Below are positions 1 to 57,584 of a DNA stretch of 64,000 nt, piece by piece (the stretch's first letter is position 1; each line of letters opens with the position of its first letter). Source of the DNA: Eledone cirrhosa (lineage: Eukaryota); contig OZ024741.1 in NCBI GenBank assembly GCA_964016885.1, positions 351,168,001 to 351,232,000 on the forward strand, written 5' to 3'. Below the pieces are notes generated by a model. It was not told the origin of the DNA and did no database searches. It worked only from the letters and a program-made list of their open reading frames with translations. The translations under genes were made by a program, and so were the position numbers.

Positions 1-6
1 GCTTAC

Positions 7-213
7 CAATGACATGTAGATTTGAATGCATTTTCTTAGCATCAACAACTAACTTGAAGTTTACATCTATGTTATGTATAACGAGAGGTTTCATCAACTG
101 AGTAAAGATCTGGTCACAATGTAAACGAAAAGTGTCTTTTTGTTCTCGTGATAAAGTCACACCAATCACTTCATAGCTGTCACTGATTCCGAAATACAAT
201 GTACAATTTCTTT
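7..213 (-). CDS. ARM-Schlafen gene exon (Schlafen core)
   Basis: QRNCTLYFGISDSYEVIGVTLSREQKDTFRLHCDQIF...HVI; ctacag / gtaagc. Confidence 0.85.
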
Positions 214-3200
214 CTGTAGAAAATATATATATATAAGAGTGATTGGTATTTATATACATGTTAGTGAGTAATAGGTTTACTAGGTAGCAAATATATATTT
301 TATTATTGTTTTTTAACACTTACAAAGGAGTTTTTGTAAGGGACAACAATGATGATGATGATGATAATAATAATAATAACTCCACCACAGTTGCTGCCTC
401 AGTGATAGCTGGAACAGGCAACAGCAGAAACAACAACAAAAACAACTAAAAGGCCAGGAAGGGGTCTTTAGCCTAGGTTAGTGACCTTCCTAATGATAGT
501 ATGATAGTGTCCACAATAAAAGCACTGGTAGTTGTGCAACCTTATAAACGCAATTCTCATGAAAATGTTCTTACTCTGGCTATCTCACTTTCAGGACATC
601 CTCTCCAACAACTTCTAGAGAGTTTCCCTTGCAGCTGAAGGAATCAATTTCATGTGTGCTGATGCTAGTGTTGGTGCCAAAATAAAACGCACTCAGTCAA
701 GTACAGGGTTGTATGTCAAGCCCCCAGCCCACCTGGACGTCTGAGGCTCTGCCTGAGTAATGACTGATGTGTGATGACATGTCCAACAATTGCTAGCAAC
801 AAAAAACGGACGTTAAACAATGATGATCATCATCATCATTATATATATATATGAATATATGACGCATGGCTTAGTGTTGGGCATGCAATCGTGAGGTTGT
901 GAGTTTTATTCCCGGACCGAGCGATGTGTTATTTCACATTGTCCAGTTTACTCAGCTGTAGAAATGAGTTGTGATGTTACTGGTGTCAAGCTGTATCAAC
1001 CTTTGCCTTTCCATTGGACAACATTGGTGGCAGGGAGAGGGGAGACTGGTATGCATGGGTGACTGTTTTCTACAAACAACCTTGCCTGGACTTGTGCCTT
1101 TAGGTCCAAATCCCATGGTCATTCGTGACCAAAGGAGGTCTTTACCCAAAATATATATCATCATCATCACTTTTACGTCCATTTTTCCATGATTGCATGG
1201 GTTGGATGGGTCCTTCTCAGCACGGCATCTTTCCACTTGTAACATTTCTTTGTCATCTCCCCTGTGAGTCTCATTGATTTGAGGTCAGCTCTCACAACCT
1301 CTGCCCAGGTCTTTCTTAGTCTACCTCTACTGTGGCTTCCTTCCACTGGCATTTCCTGGCACTTCGTCACACAATGATCATCATCCGTATGCAAATAAAT
1401 AGATGGATACATAAGGATAAACAGGTAAGTAGATAAAGAGTATGAGAATAAATGTATAGCTTACGGCAATTTAACATTCCACACACTGTTTTACCAATAT
1501 CAGTCACCTGATTTCTTTTCTCTACAGGGAGAATTGCATGAGTTGCATCTTTAATGAAAGGCACTGTGGCACCTGGAAGTTTGATGAAAATTATTAGATA
1601 CAGGCATGTATTGACTAAAGAACACTAATTTGTAAGGAGTAAATAAACTTAACATACTGCAAAATGGTTAGCGATTGAACAGAGACATATAGGGTTGAGC
1701 GGACTTTCAAGTCTGGCTGAACATATTATAACCTCTCTAGTGCTGCACCCAGTATATTGTCAGGTGATTGGCTTATAAAGGGCATTCAGTTGTAGAAACC
1801 ATGCCAAATATGGAACATAGTCTTAGACAATGACAACTTGTCCAACACTTGCCAGCACAGAGAGCAGATATAAAATTATGATAAAGATGATGAAGTCATG
1901 CAAATGTTTAAATTTAAGAAAAAACACACACAATAGATACAGAAACATAAAAGGCAGAAAAGAGTGGAAAATGATGTGTTAAATAAATAAAATATATACT
2001 TACCATATTGATAACTTCCATCCCATTGTCCACAAGGCTTTTCCACAAAATCATATCTGTCTTAATAGTAATAATAATAATAATTTCCTTTTATTTTCCA
2101 CAAGGGCCAACAAAAAGGAGCAATACAAAGAACAGGCACAGTGGGGATTTACATTGAAATCGAGTAAGGTGTATAAATAACAGATAACAATGAACAACAA
2201 AATGCATATCAATGAAAATTCCCCAATAGGAAGAGGACCACCCAGGGGTGACTAGGAACCCTACAAATCCTAAACCACCTGACACTCAGGAACACGCTAG
2301 AAGGGTGTCCCTCTCTCCTCTTTAAATCAGCCAGCCTAGAGGCGCATGATCAGAGTAGGCCCATTCACACGAGCCATCCAAGCAACATTTATCCACTTTT
2401 TAACAAATGTATAGAGGAAGCAGCACTTCCATCTCCACCCTCACCTTCCTTTCTATGTGAAACTTGAGAAAGTTGATGAGGGACTGGCCAAAGAGGAAAG
2501 CTGCCTGTCCTTCCTACCCAAAAGATGGTGGTGGGGTGATTTTCATAATGGACTCATTCGCTAGCCGGATCCTTCATACATATGATAACAGTTGTTTGAC
2601 ATAACTTGACAGGTCAGTAATGCACAGACACTGGAAGAGTGCATGCAGGATGGTTTCATCAGTCTGTGCACATCTTGGACAGGTCCGTATTTCCATGCCT
2701 GTAGAATTTATCTTGAATTGGCAGTGCAAAACAATGGATTACTGGACTTTACCATTCACACTGACCACACTATTAATGCAAACCACCCTGATATTATTAT
2801 TGAAGATTTTAAAAAGAAGACCTGCTTACTCATTGATTTAATTGTACCGTCTGATAGAAATCTGCCAGCAAAAGAGTATGAAAAGCTTGCAAAATATAAA
2901 GATCTAGAAATCAAAATGAATAGAATATGGCAACTATTCCGGTAGTGATAGGAGCTCTAGGTATAAATAAAGGTGTTCAAAAGTTTCTAGAAAACATACC
3001 TCGTAAAGCTAGCATCTATGAAATCCAAAAGATAATTCTAAACAAGTACCATCCACATACTTCATAAATATCAACATACAATATTTTCTGTTTAATATTT
3101 ATTGTAAATTTAATTGATATTTAATGCCATTCAAATATCCTTAATGTAAAATCAATTCTTTAATACTTCTTTTTATCTCCTACCTTTTTATATTTATTTT

Positions 3201-5091
3201 CTCAACTTATTTACCTATCAACTTTTGTGATGTCACTTGTTAAATGAATGTGAGGATGAAACAATATATTAAAAAAAAGCTATAAAAAATGTCAAAACCA
3301 ACAGTGCCTGCCCTCAGTAGTCATTGCATATAAAGCAAAATCAAAGGTTGACCAATACTTTCATCATCCTCAACATCATTTAATGTCTGTCTTCTCTGCT
3401 AGCAAGATTTGGATGGGTTTTCACAGATCAAGTCAGTACCTAAGTGGTGTTACTGACTTCTCAGATAAGCCGAGGGCAAGAATCTCTCTTTCATATGTTC
3501 CCATTCCTTTGGCAGGTTTTCTATGGCTGGATGCCATTCCTATAATCAACCACTTTCCAGAGTGTACTGGGTGCATTTATCGTGTAGATCACCAACATGA
3601 GAGAGATTGTCATGTCTTTGACACAACTGACTTGAAGCCTGCCATATATCATCACATACACATAATTTAATGGTTCTACATAGATATTGATACAAATAAG
3701 TACAGGACATAAAACAGTATGAAGTTGATTGATTAAATCCTTTCAATAATATACCCCCAGCATGGCTACAGTTTATTGGCCGAAACTAGTAAAAAAAAAA
3801 AAATAACAAAACTGAAAAATTACCTGGTTTCTTTAGAAAGTCTTCACTGTTCATTTCAAAATGGTCTTTAACCTCAGGATGTTCACCACCACCATCCTGC
3901 AGAGATATGACAACCATACTGTAACAAACAGCAGTTGGACAATCAATATGGAATAGCAAGGAATATTTAGCTTAAAATCAATTCCATATTAACTCTTTTG
4001 ATGCAAAACTGCCTGAAATTACTCTTGGTTTCATCTTGTCGTGTCCACAAGAGTGTCAGTTACAAAGCTAGATGTGGTTCTGCCACAAAAACACATTGCT
4101 GTCCTTTCTCATTAAACTCTGCCAAGTCGAATTCTGTGCAGGGGTGTTCTAGCAGGGAGCAAATTAGGAGGTGCTGCATAGTCTGAGGTTCAATGCCGCA
4201 GTCATACACGTCCCCATCCTTTAAATATCCCCATTTTGCAAGAGTGACTTTTGCACGTCCAACACCAGATCTTAGTCTGTTCAGGCATTTCCACACTGTA
4301 TAGTTTGTATCTGCTCTTGGTTTAATGATATAAAGCTGTTTGTATTCATATTTAAATTCTAACTCCTATCATAATTTTATGTTCCAAATACCATATTAAT
4401 AATGAGAAAGTTAGTTATATTACTAAATCTCTACAAACTCTTGATATTAATTTGAAATCAAACAGTGTCTTTCATTATAAATATATTAACAAAAGGTTCA
4501 ATATTGATGGTATTATCATCATCAATTTTCAAATCAGTTTGGCTTGGTTTCTACAGTTGGATGCCCTTCCTAACTCCAACCACATTTACCGTGTGGACTG
4601 GGTACTTTTAATTGTGGAACTAAGACCTGCTTATAGTGTAAATTGGGTGCTTTTTGTCTTGACACCAACACAACCATTTTACAGTGTGAACTGATCACTT
4701 TTTGTTGTGGCACTAAGATGAATACTATACAGTGAGGACTGGGGGGCCGGGGCACTTAGCTGGTGAAGAGTGGAGTGTTAGGACATGGATGAAGGGTAGT
4801 GTTAGGACATGAGTGAAGGGTGGAGTGTTAGGACATGAGTGAAGGGTGGAGTGTTAGGACATGGGTGAAGGGTGGAATGTCATGTGGATGACGGGTGGAG
4901 TGTTATGACATGGATGAAGGATGGAGTGTTATGACATGGGTGAAGGGTGGAGTGTTAGGACATGGGTGTAAGAGTGAAGTGTTAGGACATGAGTGTAAGA
5001 GTGAAGTGTTAGCCAGATTAGTTGCCGACCACTTGATCATGAAGCAGGTTTTACTGGATAATGTGGTATCAGTGGCAGGTAGAAGCCTGAC

Positions 5092-5122
<31 letters not shown>

Positions 5123-8100
5123 CTCTGTAAGGTGCTCATGTTAGTGACATGACAGGAGGTACTCAGTTCATCTTGTAAAGTGGTCGCGTTAGGGCATAAC
5201 AGAAGGCACGTGGTCTGTCTTCTAGAATGTTCGGGCTGGTTACACAAGGAACAGCCTGTCTGCCTTGTAAGGTTGTTATGATGGTGACACGACAAAAAGC
5301 ATCCAGTCCACCCTGTAGAGTGGTCATGTTGGTGACACAACAAAAAGCAGCCAGTCCACACTGTAAATGTGGTTGGCATGAAAAAGGGCATCCAGCTGTA
5401 GAAACAGTTCTGTATGAGCAAAACATGGTTATCTCATCAGACTTGTCTCACAATGGGACAACTTGTCTAACCCATGCTATCATGGAAAATGAATATATGA
5501 TGATGATGATATATACGTAATGTTAACAAGGAGAACAATACAGTACAATGAAGATATATTTAACACTTGATATAGCAGGAAAAGAGTCTTAATATTTTGA
5601 ATGTTAGTTCTTCTTTAGAAGATAGACTGAGAGAGAAGAGAGAAGAAAAGGAAGAAATAATAGAACAAATTTGTTCACAGGAGGAAAGCACATATGTATT
5701 TATTCAGTCACATATATAATGTGCTCCTAAAGTTTCACTTGCAAAGCATTGGTCAACCCAATGCCTAAGGTGCCACACAGTGGGACAGAACCTGACACCA
5801 TGTTGTTCCATAGAGAACACCTTAGTCACACAGCCATGCCTCCCAAAGTAAAACTTACATATAGTCTGAAGTCAGCTAGATTTTCTTCCACAGTTTTTAA
5901 TGCAGGAGGATAACTTTTGATACAGTGATATCTGAAGAAAATACATAGAGAGAATTATTTACTTCTATTGAACGATGATTGTCTAATGTTAAATAGAGAT
6001 AGTGAATTGGCAGAACGTCAGATAGAAAGATCTAATCTCTGAGATCAAATCCTACCAAGGTTAACTTTGTCTTTCATCCTTTCTAGGTCAATAAATACTG
6101 TAACAGTCCAGTACAGAGTTGGTCCTTACTCTTTCTTTCTCTCTCTCTGGAAATAATTGGCTGTGTTCAGACCTCAAGAGAGATGGGCTCCACCATGCTC
6201 CAAACACGCTATGTATCATGAAAGCACCCCTACCATTTCATGAGGAGTTCAGGCCCCATAGATGGACAGATGGAATGTTAAATATAATCAGGAGTATTCA
6301 AGGAATATAGTACTACCCTACAGCAACAAGGAAAGGAACCAAACATCAAATAGGATCAAAGAAACTGTTTCAATTGGTCTTTTCATTGTTGATACACTGT
6401 GCCGGTCACAGCTCCTGGCAGAAATGAAAAGGAGCCAATCATCAGATTATCGAACCAAGGAAACTGTTTCAATTGTTTTTTCCATTGCTGATACTATTTG
6501 CTGGTTGCATCTCCTGACAGAAAGTGGTGGGATTTGAACTCAGAACCAAATCAGATGCTGTAAAGCATCCTGCTTGACACTTTGACAATTTCACCAATCT
6601 GCTGCTCCTGGATTGGTACTTAATCTATCAACAATAAAAGAATGATAGGTAAAATTGATCTTGGTAAGATTTGAACTCAGAGTGCAGAAAATTAAAACAA
6701 ATACTGCAGAGCATTTAACTGATGCCCTGAGAACTTAAAATGAACGAGAAGCAATTACTTCATTAAAATGAGACGACCAGAAGCAGTTAATTCATTAAAA
6801 GATATCGTCATCACTATATAACATTCATTAAAATGAACCAACCGGAAGCAGCTAATTTAGTAAAATAGGCCAATTACAACAACACAATATTTAAAAGTCA
6901 TTTTCTCTGCTAAAGTAGTGAGTAGTCTAGAAGGCACCAAGACAGGCTTAATACACATAACAAGGGGCCTTTTAGAAGTAATGTTTTACTGCAAGATGCC
7001 CTGACATCAATCCTTTTGTAATTGTTGTAATGCATACAGAACACTCTACAAGGTAGTTGAAAAGCATCTAGCTGTAGAAAACATGCCAAAGCAGATGGCT
7101 CCAGCCTATCTTAGAGGACAGTAGCTCCAATAATATACTGGCTTGATTTGTGACAACCCATCCAACCTATGCTAGAATGGAATAATGGACATTAAATGAT
7201 GATGAGGATATTGATGTAGTCCTAGATACTGGACAACTATGAAGTGATAAAACAAAGCATATTTACGATTTTCTTGTATGATTTCGATGAGGTTCCTTTT
7301 TGGTTAAGTGTAGCAAATGTTTCACTACATCCTGTATGAATGGTCTACAGAGCATAGATGTTGGGTATGAGTAAAGAAGTCTGGTGATCACCTGCATACC
7401 TTCATGATAGAAAGAAAAAAATACAGCTTACACCTATGCAAGTTTAGTTGGCCTCCTACAAGGTTGCACCTCATAGGAAGTTTCTCAGGTGTTTTAATGA
7501 TTGAATTATGTAAAAATGCAAAATGAAGTGTCTTGTTCAAGAATTCAACATGCTAACTGGTCCAAGAAATGAACCTTATATCATGATTGTGAGTTCAACA
7601 ATCTAACCACTTGGCCACATGCTTTTACACCTTCACAATAGATTAAAGGAAATAGAAATTTCAGTAAAAAATTTGATACTAATCCATTTGAAACTGGCCC
7701 CAACTTTACGATAAGCTGTTTCTTTTAAAGTATTTATATTTACTATCAGAAAACCACATTTCGGGTGGTTTTCTGCTATCATGTGTAATGTGCATATTGA
7801 TATTATACGCAAGTATATATGCATGTAGATATGATACATCAAATAAAATCGTAATTGACAATATACACAGAAATTGAACGAAACTGTGTTACACTGTCTT
7901 ATGTAATCAGTAACGTAATCCATGATACATTAAAAAAAGACAATATTATATATAAACTGCATTAGGAGAAAATTAGTAACGGAAATATATGAATGTTTAT
8001 TTAAGCGACCGCTAACCGGAAGTGTTGACATTTGAAAATTTTAAAGAAATGAATCTTAAAATAAGCAACAATATTATTTATATTTAACCAAGAATAACAG

Positions 8101-11100
8101 AATTTATTAGATAAATTATGTAATGTTCATTCATTATTTATTCAAAGTAATTCAACTTATTTTACAAACGGGATACAAAAATATATTCTGGACGCAGTCC
8201 CGCACTCCTTACTTTATTATAGTTTAGATTTAAAAACCTTCCATGATAATATTATGTAAGAACCTTTTTTTTAAAGCTATGTACAAAAGCATAAGATACA
8301 TAATCATCATCCTAGGATATTGGACTCACAATTACAAGGTTGTGGGTTCGATTCATGGATTGGTTGGTGCATTGTATTCTTGAGCAAAATGCTTTTCATG
8401 ATAGGATTGGGGGCTACACAAGCCCCTGGGAAGCCAGTGAACCCTACACAGCTGTGAGCCGTAAATTTCATTTTTCATTTCATATATATAATGAAGAGAG
8501 ATTTCAACAAGATGTTTCAGAAAAAAACTAAAATAAAAAATATAAAACAAAATTAAAATAAAATGTAATCACCTCCAAGTATATAAAACTGCTTTTTGAT
8601 GTTTTCACCTTTTTCCAAAGTATTGCTCAAATAGATCATACAGTGTTTCAGTAAACTGTCCACATTATTGCCAAACTGGAGTGTGTTTTCCAAATATTTA
8701 TTGCAAATTTCTAGAAATAAGATAATACAGTGTGTGTGTAGTGACTAATGGTAACAGCACAAATCAAGCAAGTTGTCAAGACACAGCAATGATTTCTTTA
8801 CATTGACATAAGTCCCTGGATATGTAAAAGATAGGTGGTGTAGAAGGATAATGATAGAGAAAGACATAGCCCAGTACATAGCCCATGGCCAGTCATGACT
8901 GGCCATGGGTTATGTACTGAAGATTGATTGATCATGGGTTTGTGTCTACGAGGCACAAGCCTTGGAAGAGAGATTTTGTAGAAGACCAACAGTAACCTGT
9001 ACATGCCAGTCTTCCCTCTCTATGACACTGATGTTGTTCGAAGGAAAGGCAAAGGCTGATACAGTTTGGTACTAGTGTTATTGTAATTCATTATTTCCAG
9101 CAGTCGACTGGCACAACATGAAATAAAGTGTCTTGCTCATGGACACAACATTCTGCCTAGTCTAAGAATCAAGCCCCCGACCTTATGATTGTGAACGCAA
9201 CACCCCAACCATATTTGGTATAGAAACATAATTGTTTCTACTTTTGGCACAAAGCCAGCAATTACCCAGTACATTACTGGTACTTTATTTTATCGACCCC
9301 GTAAGGATGAAAGGCAAAGTTAACCTCGGCGGAATGCCACACCAATTTATGACAAAATAACCACCAATATGTCTAACAGTATTATGTTGATCAAATTGTG
9401 AGATGGACATGAACCATTTTTGTATCAAACCACCTGAAACTGACCCAAGTTCTACAATATAAAACTGTTATTTATCTAAAAAGCTCCATCAAAAATGTAA
9501 GAACCTTTGTTGAGTTATGCTCCAAACACCATCTTAATAATGATAAAATTAGTTATGTTATTAAGTCCCATCAAATTATTGATTCTTTGCAAATTTATAC
9601 CCACAAGTGTGTCATCTCACAAGATCTTATATTATCAAACTGTTGGGTGGACATGAAATTTTTTCATACCAAACCACCTCTGGTTCTACAATATGAAACC
9701 GTTTATTTGAAAGAATTTGTATTTATCTAAAATCCTTCCATCATAATTTTGTGGAAGAATCAAACATCAGCTAAAACTGCAAAAGTACAAAACAACACTA
9801 TGGCTGCATTATATTAAAAATTAAAGTATTTACTCTATTCTAATTTTTTACAATGATCTGTCCACTTGTAAAGATATGATAAATATTTGAATTAACAAAC
9901 CTGTTTCTAAATATTTTCAGATAAATCTATTACAGGGTGTTAAGAATTAAGTCTTTCCAAATTCTTGATTATTTAGAAAATTACTTGAAAATCATAGAGT
10001 GTCTTTTACTAGAAATATTGTAACAAAAGGTTTAAAAGGAACCTACTTACCAATTATAAACTTCAAAATGTCTGTATTATCTAATATACTGTGTTTGGTT
10101 AAGTTAGTTTCCAAACAAAAATTACTAAAAATCTTGAGAACATCAATCTTCACAACTTGAGATGAAGTTTTGGCAGTCTTTAAAAGAATATCACATCCAA
10201 AAAGTTCTTCAAACAATGAACCTAAAATTAAAGAAAAAACAAAATGTAATATCTAAAAAATATATTTCTTGAATAAGGTAAATAAATTGAAGTGAAAGAA
10301 GTTTGAAAAAGGATGCTAAAAAAAGCAAATACTTTAACATGCTTTTATTTATACCAGAAATCAGGTTCTGTCATCGCTGTTGTCTATTTGTCTATCTCTA
10401 TCGATTTCTCTGTCTCATCATCATCAGCGTTTAAGGTCTCTTTTCCATGAGAGTATCAGTTAGATGGGTTGTCATGTTCTGAGGTGATAATGTCTTGCTT
10501 GTATGTTTCATTTTTGGATTGATTTCATTGGCTGGATGCCCTTCCTAAGGCCAACCACATTACAGCATGTACTGGGAGCATGTTTTCTATGATTGGATAC
10601 CCTTCCTAACACCAACCACTTTACAGCGTGAACTGGAAGCATATTTTCTATGGCTGCTCTTCCTAATACCAACCACTTTACAGCACGTACTGGGAACATT
10701 TTATTGTGACTCCGGTACTACCAACTTACAGGGTGCACTGGGTGCTTTTCTTCATGGCAACATCACTATCACTTTACAGAGTGGGCTGTGTGTATTTTTA
10801 TCGTGACACCATCACTACCTATATATAACCTGGAAAAAGATAGGCACCAATGGGTTTTAAAAATGACCAACATATGCCATATGTCATGACAACGCCCCTA
10901 TGATTTCATTTTGAGTTATAGCAGTAATTATAGATATAGATATATAATCCACAAACATAGCTTTGTTAGAGTCTGATGAAGAAACCAAATATTTCTTACA
11001 ATGAGTTATGTACTAGTCTTTCCATTAAAATTGTGCAACTTACCTAAATCCGTGTCAAACCAAGTAAAGTTGCATAAGCAGCTCACTGCAAACTTAGTGG

Positions 11101-11500
11101 TGCTGTCAGATTCATTCTTTGTAAGAGCCAAGAGAAGATGGAAAATAAAATTACGATTTGCTGAAATTTCTGAACAAATTTCTGGCACTGTTGACAAATG
11201 GTAGAGAACACTTAGAGAAGCCATTGACAAGAGAAGAAAAAGATGGCCACTATGTTCTGTTAATTTCTGGAAAATAGATTCTAATTTTAATAAAATACCA
11301 TGTTTCAAAAACAACCTTTTAATCTCAGCACATTTCTCAGATATGAAAATTCTGTTTATGAAATCTAAAATGGCTATTTCATTGACAATGTCCTCTTCTC
11401 TGTATATCACATAGTCCTCAAACTGGTCAATCAAACATATCACAACAGCTTCATTTATTTTTGGTGGCAATGGTGCACCTTTTAGAAGCAAGCTGGCCAT
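7..11500 (-). CDS. ARM-repeat + Schlafen/AlbA_2-like domain protein; spliced, 9 coding exons in window, 3' end outside window
   Basis: Exons 11500-11044, 10221-10051, 8710-8573, 7399-7267, 5931-5859, 3896-3824, 2060-2004, 1572-1465, 213-7 join in phase with GT-AG ends (472 codons +1 nt). N-terminal half has ARM-like motifs (AVSCLCNF, LKIFSNF, YILGGMQVITRLL). C-terminal IGKTVCGMLNCQRNCTLYFGISDSYEVIGVTLSREQKDTFRLHCDQIF matches the recalled Schlafen core. Confidence 0.8.
1465..1572 (-). CDS. ARM-Schlafen gene exon (start of Schlafen domain)
   Basis: GATVPFIKDATHAILPVEKRNQVTDIGKTVCGMLNC; ttccag / gtaagc. Confidence 0.8.
2004..2060 (-). CDS. ARM-Schlafen gene exon
   Basis: DRYDFVEKPCGQWDGSYQY using the aag acceptor; donor gtaagt; acceptor choice uncertain. 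Confidence 0.65.
2066..2700 (-). mobile_element. L1/Tx1-like LINE 3' remnant with AATAAA and (TAT)n tail
   Basis: Decayed C-terminal coding sequence and 3'UTR ending aataaaaggaaattattatt; family by recall. Confidence 0.5.
2735..3070 (+). mobile_element. R4/Dong-type LINE remnant (restriction-like endonuclease)
   Basis: DFTIHTD..NHPDIII..CLLIDLIVPSD.N..KEYEKLAKYKDL..RIW then PVVIGALG after a frameshift. Confidence 0.8.
3824..3896 (-). CDS. ARM-Schlafen gene exon
   Basis: DGGGEHPEVKDHFEMNSEDFLKKP; ctgcag / gtaatt. Confidence 0.7.
4040..4320 (-). mobile_element. Ingi/Vingi-like LINE 3' remnant
   Basis: WKCLNRLRSGVG..LAKWG..DCG..QTMQHLLIC C-terminal zinc-knuckle pattern. Confidence 0.65.
4762..5011 (+). 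repeat. ~26-bp G-rich minisatellite, about 9-10 units
   Basis: Unit approx. gagtgaagggtggagtgttaggacat. Confidence 0.9.
5120..5510 (+). mobile_element. RTE 3'-end-derived repeat with ~43-bp subrepeats and (GAT)n tail. Other copies near 10415-10820(-), 20815-21240(-), 25960-26345(+), 33985-34540(-), 39890-40150(+), 43440-43745(+), 44560-45065(+), 60165-60720(-), 62040-62305(-)
   Basis: Shares gaagggcatccagctgtagaaa...cccatgctagcatggaa...gatgatgat with the 3'UTR of the RTE at 54040-54333. Confidence 0.8.
5859..5931 (-). CDS. ARM-Schlafen gene exon
   Basis: YHCIKSYPPALKTVEENLADFRLY; ttcag / gtaagt. Confidence 0.75.
7267..7399 (-). CDS. ARM-Schlafen gene exon
   Basis: GMQVITRLLYSYP...HTRK; aag acceptor / gtaaat. 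Confidence 0.75.
7743..8228 (-). mobile_element. Non-autonomous Helitron, family A
   Basis: 5' TCTAAACTATAATAAAG, 3' hairpin with degenerate CTAG, between A and T; homologous to 15841 and 24860 copies. Confidence 0.8.
8573..8710 (-). CDS. ARM-Schlafen gene exon
   Basis: EICNKYLENT...KKQFYILG; ttctag / gtgatt. Confidence 0.8.
10051..10221 (-). CDS. ARM-Schlafen gene exon
   Basis: GSLFEELFGCDILLK...ILKFII; ttttag / gtaagt. Confidence 0.85.
11044..11500 (-). CDS. ARM-Schlafen gene, first coding exon
   Basis: MASLLLKGAP...WFDTDL; acceptor ttcag above 11513, donor G|gtaagt. Confidence 0.85.
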
Positions 11501-12499
11501 ATTTCACAATAATCTGAAAGAGAAAGAAATGAACCTGTTCATGACCATATTCATAATGAAATACAATCTACTTAAATTTAATAATGGATTTTAAGGGATT
11601 CATCATAATAATTATCTCATCACTAACTTAATATATGATTCTTATATAAAATTATGTTGGAAGATTTGAATTTACATAGGAAGTCTTAAAAAATGGGTGG
11701 TTTCGTTTCACAGAACTAACATGGGTCTGGCTGGCATTAAAAGGGTTCATGTGCTATAATATCAGTATAACTATAATTGGTTAACACCTCTTTCACTCAC
11801 AATGTCTTTATCTTCCTACAGGAATAAAATCAAAACAAAATAAAAAACAGACATAGCTTTGGATTCAGTCTCACTATGTGGCACCTTGGGCAAAACAAAT
11901 GAACTGAGAGAGAAACTGGGCATAAGAGGGATCTCATGCACTGATCTTTCAAGGCACAGTTGAGGGAGGGCTAAGAAGAGGCAGACAAGAAAACCTTGTC
12001 CGACAACCACAACCACACTTCTATGCATGACAGAGAATAGATAGTAGTGGTGATTGCTGACAGAGGGCACCCCAATGACTGGTTACATTAGCTGCCAGAA
12101 CTTCATGATATATATATATATATATCATCATCATCATTGTTTTGACACCCACTTTCCCTGCTATATATATATATTTACATGTATGTATATATTGAATGAT
12201 AGGTGGCGAATTGGCAGTCATTAGAATGTCGGATAGAATGTTTTGTAGTACTCATTTCGGCTCTCTGAGTCAAATCCAGCTGATGTCAACTTTGCTTTCA
12301 TCCATCAATAGTCAATAAAAAAAAGTACTGGGCCGATTCTTCCTCTAAATCTCTTTTTCTCACCCTCTCTATCCTTCTCTGGAAGAAATTTACTGTATCC
12401 ATGACTGGAGAGGAGATGGGCTCTGCCAGGTTTTAAAAAAAGATGCCCTAGAAACGCTGTATGTCAATATTGCACCCCAATGACTTCTCGGGAGTTACA

Positions 12500-13612
12500 G
12501 GTCCATACCATACCTTATATTGAATGGCTTGTGAAAGCAGTGCAAGCCATATACAGAGGTGCTGTCAGTCAGGTGAGAGTAGGTAATAAGTTTAATGAAG
12601 AACTCAATGTGCAAGTAAATGTTCATCAGAGATTAGTCTTCTGCACACTTCCGTTTATTATAGTTTTCCAGGCCATAACAGAGGGGTTTAAGACAGGCTG
12701 TCCATTGAAACTTCTGTATGCCGAAAACCTGGTTCCTATAGCCAAGGCTGAGGGCTTTGGAATTAAAAATTAGAATCAAAAGAGCTTAGAGTAAACTTGG
12801 GAAAAACCGAAGTTTTGGTAAGAAGGAGAGAAGACACGACGCTGATCTAATCAGGGAAGTGGCTTTGCTCAATAAGGGAGTAGGTAGAAACTTTATATAA
12901 TGTGCACAATGTAAATTTGGGGCACACAAGTGGTATAGTGGGACAACAAGCAAGCTAACAGAAAAGTTAAACGTGTATGTTGCAGATGTACAGGGATAGT
13001 TGGTAGTAAGAGCAATAGTGAAATAAACTTTTTCCAATCCCATAGAAGTAGTTGATAGCTTTTATTACCTAGGTGATCAACAGTGGAGGAGGTTCCACTG
13101 AGAGCATAATAGCTAAATAAGAACAGAATGAAAATAGTTCAGGGAGCTGCTACCTTTGTTGACAACAAAAGGTTTCTCTCTATAGAAAAGCTAGCTGTAT
13201 CATGTCTATGTGCGAAGTTGCATGGCAGTGAGATATGGGCAGTAAATGCAGAGGATATGTGAAGTGAACATGCTCTGACGGTTATGCAATGCTAATGGGC
13301 AGGCAGAACAAAGCATGAATGAGCTAAGAGAAAAGCTGGGTATAAGAGAAATCAGATGTAATGTACAGGAGAAGACTGTGCTAGTAATGGCCATGTGATG
13401 CGCATGGATGATGATAGAGGTAAAGCAGCATGAAATTCCAGTGGAAGGAAGATGTAGTAAGAGACCAAGGAAGATGTGGAAAGAGAGCCAATCTCAAATC
13501 GCTGAAATTCAAGAGATGGCGATAGACCGCAACGAGTAAAAGGATGTAGTGCTGGAAGAGAGTTAGCCAACACATACATGCAAGCATGGAAAAAAGCACG
13601 TAAAACGATGTA
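12500..13612 (+). mobile_element. Decayed RTE LINE (same family as 51553-54333)
   Basis: EWLVKAVQAIYRGAVSQVRV..FIIVFQAITEGFKTGCPLKLLYA with many frameshifts. Confidence 0.85.
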
Positions 13613-51552: not shown

Positions 51553-54333
51553 TAACACAAACTTCAAAAAACCCGACAACCACCTGATCACCTATAGATC
51601 AGGGGAGCATTCTAGTCAGATAGATTTTATCCTCATCAGAGGACGTGACAGATGGACGGTCGTAGTGACAGATGGATGGTCGTAAACACAAAAGCCTTCC
51701 CTAGTGAGGAATGTACCTCCCAATTTAGCTTAGTTGTCAGCGACCTCACGGTCAGAACTAGACAAACCTGGAAACAGAGTCCAACCTGGAGAAGAAAGAT
51801 CTGGAAGCTGAAAGACCCCTCGGCCAGTAACAGATTTAAAGATATTTTACTCAACACCTACGACAGTAAAGAAGAACAGATAGAGACATTCAATGTAGAA
51901 GAGCACTGGGAGTTCCTAAAAATAACTTACTAGAAGCAACGGATGAGATCTGTGGCTGGAGTAAGACCACAAGCAGGAGGAGAGTGACTTGGTGGTGGAA
52001 CAATAAGATAGATGAGGCAGTTAAGGCCAAGAGACAGGCATGGAAAGAATGGAAGAATGGGGGAAGCAGGGTACATTACATAGAGACCAAAAGGGAAGCT
52101 AGGCGACAAGTATACTTAGTTAGGAGGGAAGCAGAGGATAGAAAATTCAAGCATGTTTTGCAACGTGAGGACCAGAAACAGGAGGTGTTCAAGATTGCGA
52201 GGCAGTGTGTCAGAGAGAATTGTGATGTCATTGGAGAGAAGTGTATCCGGAATGATAAAGGTGAGCTTGCCCTCATAAGTGCTGAGAAGAAAGATGCATG
52301 GAAGAGCCATTATGATAGATTACTAAATGAGGAGAATGCATGGGAAGAAGAGACCCTACCCCAAGTAGACCCTATAGAGGGGCCAGCAGTACAAGTCAGC
52401 AGCAGCGTAGTAAGTAAGGCAATCAAAGATATGAAGATGGGGAAGGCAACCGGTCCATCGGGTATAGCTGCCAAGATGCTGAAGGCATCTGGGTCTGTAG
52501 GTCACAATATAACCACATGTATTGTTAACCAGGTAATACTAGAAGGTGTCATACCAAAAGATTGGTGCAGTAGAATCATTGTCAACTGCTACAAAGGTAA
52601 AGGTGATGCACTATATAGAGGAAACTATAGAGGTATAAAGCTGATGGACCAGGTCATGAAAGTAACAGAAAGAGTTATAGCACAGTTGATTAAGGACCGG
52701 GTGAAACTAGATGAGATGCAATTTGGGTTTGTACCAGGAAGAGGCACCACTGATGCCCTCTTCCTTGTGAGGCAGTTACAGGAAAAGTACCTAGCTAAAA
52801 GTAAGCCACTCTACCTGGCATTCGTCGATCTCGAGAAAGCCTTTGACAGAGTTCCACGTGCTGTAATCTGGTGGGCTCTTAGAAAACTAGGAGTAGATGA
52901 ATGGCTTGTGAAAGCGGTACAAGCCATGTATAGGGGAGCAGTCAGCAAAGTTAGGATTAGCAATGAGTATAGCGAGGAATTTTGTGTACAGGTTGGTGTC
53001 CACCAGGGCTCTGTTCTTAGCCCTCTCCTGTTCATCATAGTCCTGCAGGCAATAACAGAGGAGTTTAAGACCAGATGCCCATTGGAACTCCTGTATGCTG
53101 ATGACCTCGCACTTATAGCTGAATCTATGGTAGAACTAGAGAATAAATTCCAAACTTGGAAGCAGGGACTAGAAAGAAAGGGTCTCAAAGTCAACATGGC
53201 AAAGACTAAGGTCCTTGTAAGTAGACGAGAAAACAAAACCCAGATCCCCTCAGGGAAATGGCCTTGCTCAGTATGTAGGAAAGGTGTAGGTAGGAACTCC
53301 ATTCTCTGCCCCAAATGCAAACAATGGGTACACAAGAGATGTAGCGGGATCTCAGGAAGCTTAATTAAGAATGTAGGCTTCACATGCAGCAGCTGTGCTG
53401 AGAGAGCAAGCAGCAAACAGCCACAGGAAACAAGTACCACCAATCTCTGGGAGGGCTCTGTAGAAACAGTAGACAGCTTCTACTACCTAGGTGACGAAAT
53501 TAGCAGCGGAAGTGGGTGTTCAGAAAGTAAAATAACTAGGGTAAGAATGGGATGGAAGAAGTTCAGGGAACTACTACCACTGCTAGCTGCAAAAGGCTTC
53601 TCCCTCAAAATGAAAGGCAGACTGTATGATGCGTATATCCGAACAGCAATGTTGCATGGTAGTGAGACCTGGGCGCTGAAGGTGGAAGACTTACGTAGAT
53701 TAGAGAGAAACGAAGCCTGCATGCTCCAATGGATATGTAATAGTAATATACGCGAACGACAAAGCATAAATGAATTGAGAGAGAGACTGAGCATAAGAGG
53801 AATCAAATGCATTGGTATGGACATGTGATGCGTATGAAGGATGACAGCTGCATAAAAAGGTGCAGAGCACTAGCAGTCAATGGAAACCGCGGAGTGGGGA
53901 GACCCAAGAAGACCTGGGATGAGGTGATAAAAGCCGACCTTACCCAATTACACCTCTCAAAGGCGAGGACACACGACCGTGACCTCTGGCGTCACGCAGT
54001 AATACAGAGTACCCAACCTCCCATGGGTACAAGCTGAAGCATATAGACAATATGCCCCCACTGCAAGGTGGTCGTGGAGGTGCCACGGCAAAAAAGCACC
54101 CAGCCCACACTGTGAAGTGGACATGTAGTCGCCACGAAAAAGCACCCAGCACTCATTGTAAATGAGGTTGGTGTTAGGAAGGGCATCCAGCTGTAGAAAT
54201 CAAGCCAAATCAGTTCCTGTATGAGCAAGGCATGGTCAGCCGACTAGACACTGCCCACAACAGGATAACCCGTCTAACCCATGCTAGCGTGGAAGAACGG
54301 ACGTAAAACGGTGATGATGATGATGATGATGAT
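51553..54333 (+). mobile_element. 5'-truncated RTE LINE: APE remnant, RT (YADD), PHD-like zinc finger, 3'UTR, (GAT)n tail; frameshifts at ~51920 and ~53808
   Basis: LITYRSG..SQIDFIL; 614-aa ORF 51984-53828 with QFGFVPGRGTTDA, FVDLEKAFD, GVHQGSVLSP, LYADDL; WYGHVMRM..GRPKKTW. Confidence 0.95.
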
Positions 54334-55444: not shown

Positions 55445-56340
55445 CGAGGTGTGTCAGAAAAGTTCCAGGACTGATGTCACAAAAGATTTATTTCAAACCA
55501 AAACTTCACACTAAGAGTTTTCTCCTTCAAAGTAATCCCCCTGGAGTCTAATACACTTTTCCATCCTTTTCTGCCACGCTTGCATGCACTCCTGGAAGGA
55601 TTCTTCCGGGATCCTCCGCAGTTTTGTCGTCATGGCCTTTTTGATGTCGTCCACGTCTTCAAAACGGGTCCCCTTCGGGTCGTACTCGAAGATCCATGAC
55701 TCATCACCGGTGATGACTGTCCCTAGCAAGTCTGGTTCGGTTTCAAGACGCTCGAGGATGTCCTGGCACACTTGCATGCGTCGACCCTTCTGGTCATCGT
55801 TCAGCAGTTTTGGCACCATCTTCGCGCAGACTTTCCACATGTCCAAATCTTCAGTGAGAATCTTCCAGACGCTGTCCCGATTCATGCCCAGCTCATTTGC
55901 CATCAGTCGAACAGTCAGCCGACGATCGCTACGCACCATCTGCCTGACGCGCTCAACATTGACCTCAGTCCTGGTTGTTGAGGGCCTTCTGCTCCTGGGG
56001 TCATCTTCCACGTCCTCGCGTCCTTCTTTAAACCTCTTGCACCACTCAAAAACACGTGAGCGCGACATCGTCTCATCTCCATACACTTGCTGCAGCAATC
56101 CCAGTGCTTCTGATGGAGTTTTCAAGCTTGTTAGTTGCTCTGTGCTCATTGCTTGACGACCTGAAACAGAAGACATGTATATAAAATTACGAAGAAAAAA
56201 GTTTGATCGCTGCAGAGAGCTAAGATTACAGTTACATACTCCAGGAGGATTACTTTGAAGGAGAAAACTCTTAGTGTGAAGTTTGGGTTTGAAATAAATC
56301 TTTTGTGACATCAGTCCTGGAACTTTTCTGACACACCTCG
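55445..56340 (-). mobile_element. mariner element, internally deleted, 103-bp TIRs, TA TSD, open truncated transposase ORF
   Basis: TIRs 55445-55547 / 56238-56340; YGDETMSRSRVFEW..DDPRSRRP..KVCAKMVPK.L..ITGDESWIFEYDP|KGTRFED..GDYFEG. Confidence 0.95.
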
Positions 56341-57584
56341 TATTATAATTCCATTCATCAGATGGTGCATGGATTAATTGTTAGGGTGTTGGTGTAGCAA
56401 CCATAAAGTCAGGAGTTAGATTCTTGGACTGTGTGGTGCGTTGTATCTTTGATCAAGACTTTATTACACTCAGATGAGTTGGGATGATACTAGTGCCAAG
56501 CAGTATTGACCTTTACCTTTCCCTCAGATCACATCAGTGTTGTGGAGAAGGCAGACTGGTATGCATGGGTAACTGCTTGTCTTCTACACATACCTTGCCA
56601 GTTTGGTTTGTTATGATTGAAGGGAGGAAAAGAAATTCCATTCCTATTGAGAATGTATTATAGAAATTGGCAGTATTGCTAAAGTGCCGGACGCCATGTT
56701 TTGCAGCATAGAGTTATGGCCCTTTATGATCTGAGTTCAAATCCCGCCGAGGTTAACTTTACCTTTCTTCCTTACGGGGTTGATAAAATAAAGTACCAGT
56801 CACGCACTGGGTCGATTTAATCGACTTTCCCTTCCCTCCAAATTACTGGCCTTGTGCCTATACTAGAAATCATTGAAATCATTATAGAAATATAAACTGA
56901 TACCAGTACTTAACTTGTACTTCATTTCATCAACCCTGGATGGATGAAAGGTAATGTTGACCTCGATGGAATTTGAATTTTGAACCTAGAAGGGATAAAA
57001 AGCAATGTAACTCTAGCGATATCAATTATTGTAAGGCATATATATAATCTTATCCTCTCCTACCAAATCTGTCATTTGTCATGCAACTTATTTAATATTT
57101 CCTTTGTTTAACTTTAATATCAAAGGATTAATAACTATATGTTATACTGACAAACGGCCAGAGGCTTTGGGAGAGGAATATAATAAATTAACCATTTCAT
57201 TTGCATATTTCTAATGAAATACATAACCTGTGTTTCAATTATTTTTTTGAAAATAATCAAGAATTTGGAGGGATTTAATAATATAGCTTTTTTCCCTATT
57301 TAGCTGATGTTTGAGAGCAGTAGCTTGGCAGAATATTTAAGGCACTGGACAAATGTTTTGCAGTAGTCGTTCTGATTTTACATTACAAAGTTAAATCCCA
57401 TTGAGGTCAACTTTGACTGTCATCCTTCCAGGATTAATAAAGTGCCAGACAAATATTGGGTCAATTTAATTGATAGGGTCAATAAAATAGCATGCCAGTA
57501 AAGTACTGGGTCAATTTAACCCTTTAGCATTTACATTACTCTATATTTACTATTGTATTTTTGTTTTAAAGGCTTTATCTTACA

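Follow-up and report, generated by a model that had tools for sequence, protein, structure and literature searches.

A Tudor-less cephalopod protein with armadillo repeats and a catalytically degenerate Schlafen domain, and its predicted pairing with an active stand-alone Schlafen

Schlafen ribonucleases (RNases) share the catalytic motif Ex4(E/D)xK (PMC13056530, PMC13462974), and in Cash the residues E17, D22 and K24 are each required, the K24A exchange showing that the lysine is essential (PMC13462974). SAMD9 uses E184/E196/D241 (PMC11221667). In PUCH, the piRNA nuclease of C. elegans, the enzyme is built from Schlafen domains that three proteins contribute, the catalytic residues are found only in TOFU-2, and the inactive TOFU-1 binds TOFU-6's extended Tudor (eTudor) domain away from the aromatic cage; the authors speculate that similar Schlafen combinations exist elsewhere (PMC10567574). 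Here we describe a gene from a stretch of 64,000 nucleotides (nt) of Eledone cirrhosa, referred to as the window (G000:C2:351168001-351232000 within a 3.0-Gb genome). Its protein comprises, in this order, armadillo (ARM) repeats, a linker, a Schlafen (AlbA_2) domain and a long C-terminal helix. Judged by sequence comparison, the gene is a Tudor-less cephalopod member of a family with the order ARM-extended Tudor-ARM-Schlafen-helix. We propose that the protein may act as the inactive, activating or targeting (partner-recruiting) subunit of a two-gene, PUCH-like split Schlafen RNase, a reading to which we assign a probability of roughly 45%.

A preliminary description of the window had joined nine in-phase exons into 472 amino acids (aa). 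This part stood: the nine minus-strand exons, running from 11500 to 7, splice in frame and without stops between AG acceptors and GT donors, and the protein motifs quoted at the time are present. However, the gene is not complete within the window, as it extends past the edge by two further exons that lie 2.2 and 6.2 kb outside and include the C-terminal helix, giving a total of 11 exons and 540 aa with a stop codon. The parts of the gene, in window positions unless stated otherwise, are:

11044..11500, minus strand: exon 1, coding part (the transcript exon begins at 11513); aa 1-152, N-terminal ARM repeats
Within exon 1, between about aa 122 and 134, minus strand: junction where relatives carry the extended Tudor insert, from family profiles
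10051..10221, minus strand: exon 2; aa 153-209, ARM repeats
8573..8710, minus strand: exon 3; aa 210-255, ARM repeats; absent from O. bimaculoides isoform X2 (P0001)
7267..7399, minus strand: exon 4; aa 256-299, final ARM helices
5859..5931, minus strand: exon 5; aa 300-324, linker modelled with low confidence that contains a single conserved short helix
3824..3896, minus strand: exon 6; aa 325-348, linker; length consistent with the 130-nt gap of the spliced contig
2004..2060, minus strand: exon 7; aa 349-367, end of the linker and start of the Schlafen domain; length consistent with the same 130-nt gap
1465..1572, minus strand: exon 8; aa 368-403, Schlafen domain
1529..1552, minus strand: degenerate catalytic motif, with K375-x4-A380-x-L382 instead of E-x4-E-x-K, from the alignment
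7..213, minus strand: exon 9; aa 404-472, Schlafen core; the D415 codon at 181-179 is the retained third acid
1..6, minus strand: donor site of intron 9; the GT after exon 9 stands at window position 6
L002:7765-7674 (G000:C2:351165674-351165765), minus strand: exon 10; aa 473-503, end of the Schlafen domain
L002:3837-3724 (G000:C2:351161724-351161837), minus strand: exon 11; C-terminal helix (predicted dimer interface) and stop codon

For exons 4 and 7, the acceptors 7391 and 2056 were rejected because they bring stops into the frame, while 7399 and 2060 fit. A 2817-nt Logan contig (run X1) contains exons 1-5, 8 and 9 spliced together, and the 130 nt between exons 5 and 8 equal the length of exons 6 and 7. 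Since the introns are skipped in this contig, the ARM and Schlafen parts belong to one transcript, as had been assumed, and not to separate ones; runs X2-X4 delivered unspliced pieces only. Another 40 nt of the X1 contig, preceding exon 1, found no place in window positions 1-12500, which makes a short 5' exon further upstream probable. A translated genome search with the Octopus bimaculoides orthologue gave 11 matches, nine at the window locus (exons 10 and 11 among them), one weak match at the locus L007 and one weak, stop-riddled match on contig C4; a second full copy of the gene was not found by this search. Orthologues with identical layout and about 70% protein identity occur in O. bimaculoides (LOC106871329, 542 aa) and O. 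vulgaris (541 aa). Two annotated isoforms of O. bimaculoides deviate: X2 (P0001) lacks exon 3 and with it one ARM unit, and X3 (P0003) stops inside the Schlafen domain. As X3 ends before the C-terminal helix, it would be unable to form the coiled coil predicted below.

Both domain assignments of the preliminary description were borne out. For the O. vulgaris orthologue, AlphaFold was run on a 29-row alignment (mean predicted local distance difference test, pLDDT, 78.6), and the resulting model shows helical repeats from about 17 to 285, a linker of low confidence (288-354), a Schlafen alpha/beta region (about 360-495) and a 42-residue helix (496-537). The orthologue matches AlbA_2 (PF04326) with 41.6 bits against the Pfam cut-off of 25.3; exon 9 of the window, scanned alone and not within the spliced protein, reached 18.7 bits, which is below this cut-off. 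With the same model, Foldseek placed SAMD9 (9o0d, 7ksp) on top and also returned SLFN12, SLFN11, SLFN13, SLFN5 and SLFN14 on the Schlafen side (SAMD9/SLFN E 1e-5 to 7e-4), and the ARM of APC and designed ARM on the other (template modelling score, TM, 0.6-0.8 by target). The ARM part was also matched by the family profile to plakophilin, p120 and beta-catenin (E 1e-15 to 1e-17), while the ARM families of Pfam gave no match in P0002 or any single exon. A PDB sequence search with P0002 found nothing better than rSAMD9 (E 0.16). The ESM Atlas gave no usable feature match for P0002 or P0007, and the structure matches of P0007 were generic AlbA_2 clusters.

The preliminary description regarded the gene as an ARM-Schlafen fusion. 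This architecture is correct, but the wider ARM-eTudor-Schlafen family and the loss of Tudor in cephalopods had been missed. A homologue search of 1.84 billion representative sequences resulted in 93 matches. Cephalopod relatives outside Octopus are an Argonauta protein (P0005) and P0006, which is 40% identical. The best non-cephalopod matches, mostly 750-1000 aa in length, come from bivalves, gastropods, a chiton, the annelid Owenia, Ixodes, Saccoglossus, Ptychodera and Branchiostoma, and their names are uncharacterised or domain-only throughout. More than half of 34 proteins scanned against Pfam carry a Tudor match alongside AlbA_2, and 30 sequences pass the 40-bit threshold of an extended-Tudor profile built in this analysis. 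In the non-cephalopod members, the domains follow each other as ARM, extended Tudor, ARM, linker, Schlafen and helix. ARM profiles made without cephalopods match the window protein side by side, at aa 16-122 (25 bits) and aa 134-273 (58 bits), and the eTudor profile of the family finds no match in the window protein or the four other full-length cephalopod-type sequences. The adjacent ARM segments and the lack of a Tudor match thus indicate that an insert of about 200 aa is missing inside exon 1. The Schlafen profile of the family scores 197 bits on the window protein, a circular value that carries no weight here. Since Tudor-bearing members are spread over protostomes and deuterostomes, we infer loss in cephalopods and not gain elsewhere.

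Phylogenetic analyses led to a similar grouping. In a tree of 43 chosen Schlafen domains, the cephalopods and the ARM-eTudor-Schlafen family are found on one side of a branch with support 97/91, and a quick 103-row tree delivered the same grouping with six unclassified sequences inside (Shimodaira-Hasegawa-like approximate likelihood ratio test 90). The approximately unbiased test did not reject a grouping of the cephalopods with the family of stand-alone Schlafens (p 0.128). The cephalopod branch is long, with 1.2 changes per column, and if this is taken together with the missing insert, one might regard the gene as a relic that decays after the Tudor loss and retains no Schlafen-related role. 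We consider this extremely improbable, given the intact 11-exon frame, the spliced contig and the orthologues in four other cephalopod-type sequences. In addition, identity is higher in the Schlafen domain (44-71%) and the helix (50-77%) than in the linker (20-51%).

The insert of the relatives matches the extended Tudor structures of TDRD1 (E 7e-13) and TDRKH (E 4e-11). It differs from TDRD1 and TDRKH/Papi in its location inside an ARM solenoid and in its degenerate cage, and the window protein lacks the module altogether. At the positions that we take to form the cage, an aromatic residue before the conserved Arg is present in 7/28 and Asn in 2/28 of the relatives, compared with Tyr in 6/7 and Asn in 5/7 of the genome's own Tudor domains. 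By these counts, the cage of the symmetric dimethylarginine type (aromatic plus Asn) is degenerate in the Tudor domains of the family. This suits a Tudor that docks proteins and speaks against methylated PIWI tails being read directly. The family eTudor (P0007 aa ~113-335 and relatives) has the usual post-barrel part placed first and looks circularly permuted; a test for circular permutation gave a probability of 64 for an hhalign profile pair, and single-sequence tests found nothing (best 1.7 bits). If permuted, the module would plug into the ARM solenoid. A genome search with P0007, run in a stricter mode that misses weak matches, revealed no Tudor-bearing paralogue and returned only the window gene and L007. 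Likewise, none of 29 Tudor loci in the genome was tied to the ARM-eTudor-Schlafen family by comparisons that involved no tree. About ten tandem extended Tudor domains in long exons are encoded at G000:C3:337726978-337742812 (L010-L015, L020, L024, L026, L031, L036), a gene which we take to be Tudor/TDRD6-like.

The catalytic degeneracy claimed for the Schlafen domain was confirmed in its central part. We aligned 131 Schlafen domains, after removal of 19 isoform or near-identical rows and of weak matches, and confirmed the motif register by profile alignment. E-x4-E-x-K is lost in the window protein, which has K375, A380 and L382 at these positions, but a full loss of acids does not apply, as D415 occupies the third-acid position (D241 in SAMD9). 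The window protein thus resembles SAMD9/SAMD9L, its top structural match, in having a single AlbA_2 fold with this aspartate kept, and differs from it in the Ala at E196 and the Leu at the following Lys, while SAMD9 combines the E/E/D triad with a large multidomain architecture. The designation as pseudo-nuclease can be extended to the whole family, because the motif, scored as E/D-x4-E/D-x-K, is intact in 0/5 cephalopod and 0/43 other sequences (0/48 in total; 3/43 of the latter if Arg is allowed for Lys), its loss being shared across orthologues. The catalytic Lys is missing in 48/48, with P0070 and P0092 aligning doubtfully there. As controls, all 37 covered sequences of the stand-alone Schlafen family (38 sequences, one cut short) and 30/42 other Schlafen matches keep the motif. 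One might speculate that D376, H379, D415 or residues lent by a partner support a non-canonical nuclease activity: D376 and H379 are each present in 5/5 cephalopod sequences and in 35/43 and 31/43 of the others, and D415 in 3/5 cephalopod sequences. However, the lysine that is essential in Cash is absent throughout the family, Lys and Ala replace the two Glu in the window protein, and D and H are also usual at the same places in the active family and thus look structural. Residual catalysis is therefore very improbable in our view.

A candidate for an active partner was found in the same genome. The PF04326 search pointed to one locus only, L007 on contig C24, since split exons escape this search:

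L007:1450-2226 (G000:C24, about 22301050-22301826), plus strand: stand-alone Schlafen with one coding exon, 258 aa and intact motif, from the PF04326 search

The encoded protein has 36 relatives, the named ones being from sponge, coral, molluscs, annelid, brachiopod and amphioxus. Two members of this stand-alone family carry the NCBI name 'schlafen-like protein 2', and TOFU-2 is SLFL-2, which provides a lead toward orthology only. Like the window protein, the L007 protein has a long helix at its end (model pLDDT 92). Among solved structures none was found to be close to it, the best having a TM of 0.47 by query. Four residues are invariant in its family, H28 (two residues past the catalytic Lys), H150, C158 and C160, which suggests a putative zinc site beside the active site. 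Stand-alone and ARM-eTudor-Schlafen families are jointly present in seven named species: O. bimaculoides, Argonauta hians, Mercenaria, Mya, Patella caerulea, Babylonia and a Branchiostoma hybrid.

Co-folding of the O. bimaculoides stand-alone protein P0123 (12-269) with P0004 (352-536) resulted in an interaction prediction score from aligned errors (ipSAE) of 0.75, compared to 0.00 for the best of three controls, with contact agreement of at least 96% between runs and a partner pLDDT of at least 84. In benchmarks, the mark for co-folds is reached by 51/78 solved complexes and 2/108 mismatches among microbial pairs, and by 71/105 solved and 2/126 unrelated pairs among eukaryotic ones. The predicted interface consists of a parallel coiled coil of the two C-terminal helices and of short strands. 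Thus, the PUCH-like assembly considered in the preliminary description gained a co-fold with an active paralogue which had not been named there, and it remains a prediction. In the dead protein, the interface is more conserved than the remainder in 4/4 comparisons; for example, the counts are 24/28 vs 102/157 for the window protein against P0004, 22/28 vs 87/157 for Argonauta and 17/28 vs 62/157 for P0006. The helices also differ in charge: the dead family carries E508 (35/45) and E509 (38/45), at which positions the active family has V247 and mostly K/R248 (19/35), and the active family also carries R/K244 (27/35). The residue pair 244-508 is among the predicted contacts, E508 and E509 being near R/K244 and K/R248. 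In octopods, the loss of both Arg244 and Glu509 is accompanied by the appearance of both Arg254 and Glu516; as a single evolutionary event, this charge swap is weak evidence. The residue patterns thus lean toward a heterodimer, and the models predict one between the dead ARM-Schlafen protein and the active stand-alone Schlafen.

Several observations weigh against an RNase split in this way. D415 is retained in the 3/5 cephalopod sequences mentioned above, the window protein among them (O. vulgaris has Asn), and the second Glu in 33/43 non-cephalopod family sequences. PUCH needs three subunits, and a third was not found here by the PF04326 genome search, which misses split exons. The window gene and the L007 gene are located on different contigs, and the co-folded pair comes from O. 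bimaculoides and not from the window genome. The co-fold controls comprised no homodimers, 10/12 close relatives of a true partner passed as well in the tool's own test, and likeness to solved complexes can carry such a score, Schlafen-Schlafen pairings being present in the PDB. In the active protein, the interface is hardly more conserved than the rest (26/33 vs 169/225 and 21/33 vs 141/225). Furthermore, the two families are homologous across the whole domain including the helix (hhalign probability 99.9), so that a shared homodimer surface could yield the ipSAE of 0.75. This leads to a different scenario, in which the window protein is a self-associating scaffold or RNA-binding adaptor: its helix would homodimerise, the dead domain would bind RNA and the ARM repeats proteins, the score reflecting paralogue likeness that the tool is unable to separate. 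Such a role would agree with extra interface conservation being confined to the dead protein, and with several mammalian Schlafens that lack catalytic residues and for which non-nuclease roles have been suggested (PMC13462974). In contrast, Glu at core-facing helix positions (E508 family-wide, E516 in cephalopod sequences) should make a symmetric parallel coiled coil less favourable, and we regard the scaffold as somewhat unlikely.

If the split RNase exists, the window protein would pair with the stand-alone active Schlafen of L007 via the parallel coiled coil. The role of the dead domain might then be that of TOFU-1 towards TOFU-2 in PUCH, or of the N-lobe towards the C-lobe in SLFN11, namely to complete the surface that binds RNA. 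The ARM repeats, joined outside cephalopods by the extended Tudor insert, could direct the nuclease to a protein or to an RNA granule. By analogy, germline small-RNA precursors or tRNA are candidate substrates. A piRNA role specifically is a rather doubtful part of this picture, as the Tudor cage of the family is degenerate and the module was lost in cephalopods. A further point against activation or targeting is that binding of the active partner fits inhibition equally well. The dead domain could fill the dimer surface as a safety catch, so that the RNase stays off as long as the ARM repeats sense no trigger. The same co-fold would be expected then, and the bacterial Schlafen nucleases Cash and RorSlfn5 are toxic when active and kept off until triggered (PMC13462974, PMC13056530). 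However, in PUCH, the known case in which an active Schlafen is bound by a dead single-fold one, the effect is activating (PMC10567574), and we thus judge an inhibitor to be distinctly unlikely.

The proposed split RNase resembles PUCH (TOFU-1/TOFU-2/SLFL-3 or -4) in its single-fold Schlafens, its one catalytic subunit and its assembly in trans, which is predicted here (PMC10567574). In both PUCH/PETISCO and the present family an eTudor domain is tied to the inactive subunit, in trans for TOFU-1/TOFU-6 and within one chain in the non-cephalopod members. PUCH cleaves capped piRNA precursors, and its third subunit has a transmembrane anchor. In contrast to the proposed pair, PUCH is a trimer, and the available text describes no ARM repeats for it (PMC10567574); the window protein has no visible transmembrane anchor or SPRY domain, and a long coiled coil is predicted here. 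Mammalian SLFN11/12/13/14 share the fold, yet there two Schlafen folds on one chain form the nuclease domain, with Ex4ExK in the C-lobe, whereas the window protein carries a single, inactive fold together with ARM repeats and lacks a helicase. A bolder scenario might be envisioned: a split Schlafen endoribonuclease, made of the active stand-alone protein found from sponge to amphioxus and an ARM-eTudor dead subunit, would be an ancient, overlooked animal machine for RNA processing or RNA defence. Nematode PUCH, together with the eTudor link between TOFU-1 and TOFU-6, would descend from it in modified form; the cephalopods would have rewired the machine by a clean Tudor deletion and a charge co-change in the coiled coil. 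As a whole, we hold this scenario to be unlikely.

Besides the gene discussed, open reading frames of at least 130 aa in the rest of the window are presumably only of the long interspersed nuclear element (LINE) and mariner-like kinds, among them:

51870-53828, plus strand: 652-aa reverse-transcriptase frame, which we take to belong to a LINE-type element
55511-56380, minus strand: fragment that we assume to be of a mariner-like transposase

A separate protein, P0057 (1836 aa), combines a CCCH zinc finger with an intact-motif Schlafen domain in an architecture that we did not recognise.

Full-text searches, which covered main texts and only few subscription papers, gave no description of an ARM-(eTudor)-Schlafen architecture, and the available text of PMC12680541 mentions neither Tudor, armadillo nor molluscs. 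Among nucleases assembled from different single-fold Schlafens, only PUCH turned up in the literature found. Consequently, the domains and the principle of a split nuclease are known already, while no earlier description seems to exist of the architecture, the family or the proposed pair. With this gene and its family, a concrete pair becomes available for testing in molluscs, annelids and invertebrate deuterostomes. If the pairing is true, split RNA-cutting enzymes like PUCH would be far more widespread than known. If the enzyme forms, it would point to an RNA-cleavage pathway that is conserved in invertebrates, as well as to the origin of both PUCH and the two-lobed core of vertebrate Schlafens.

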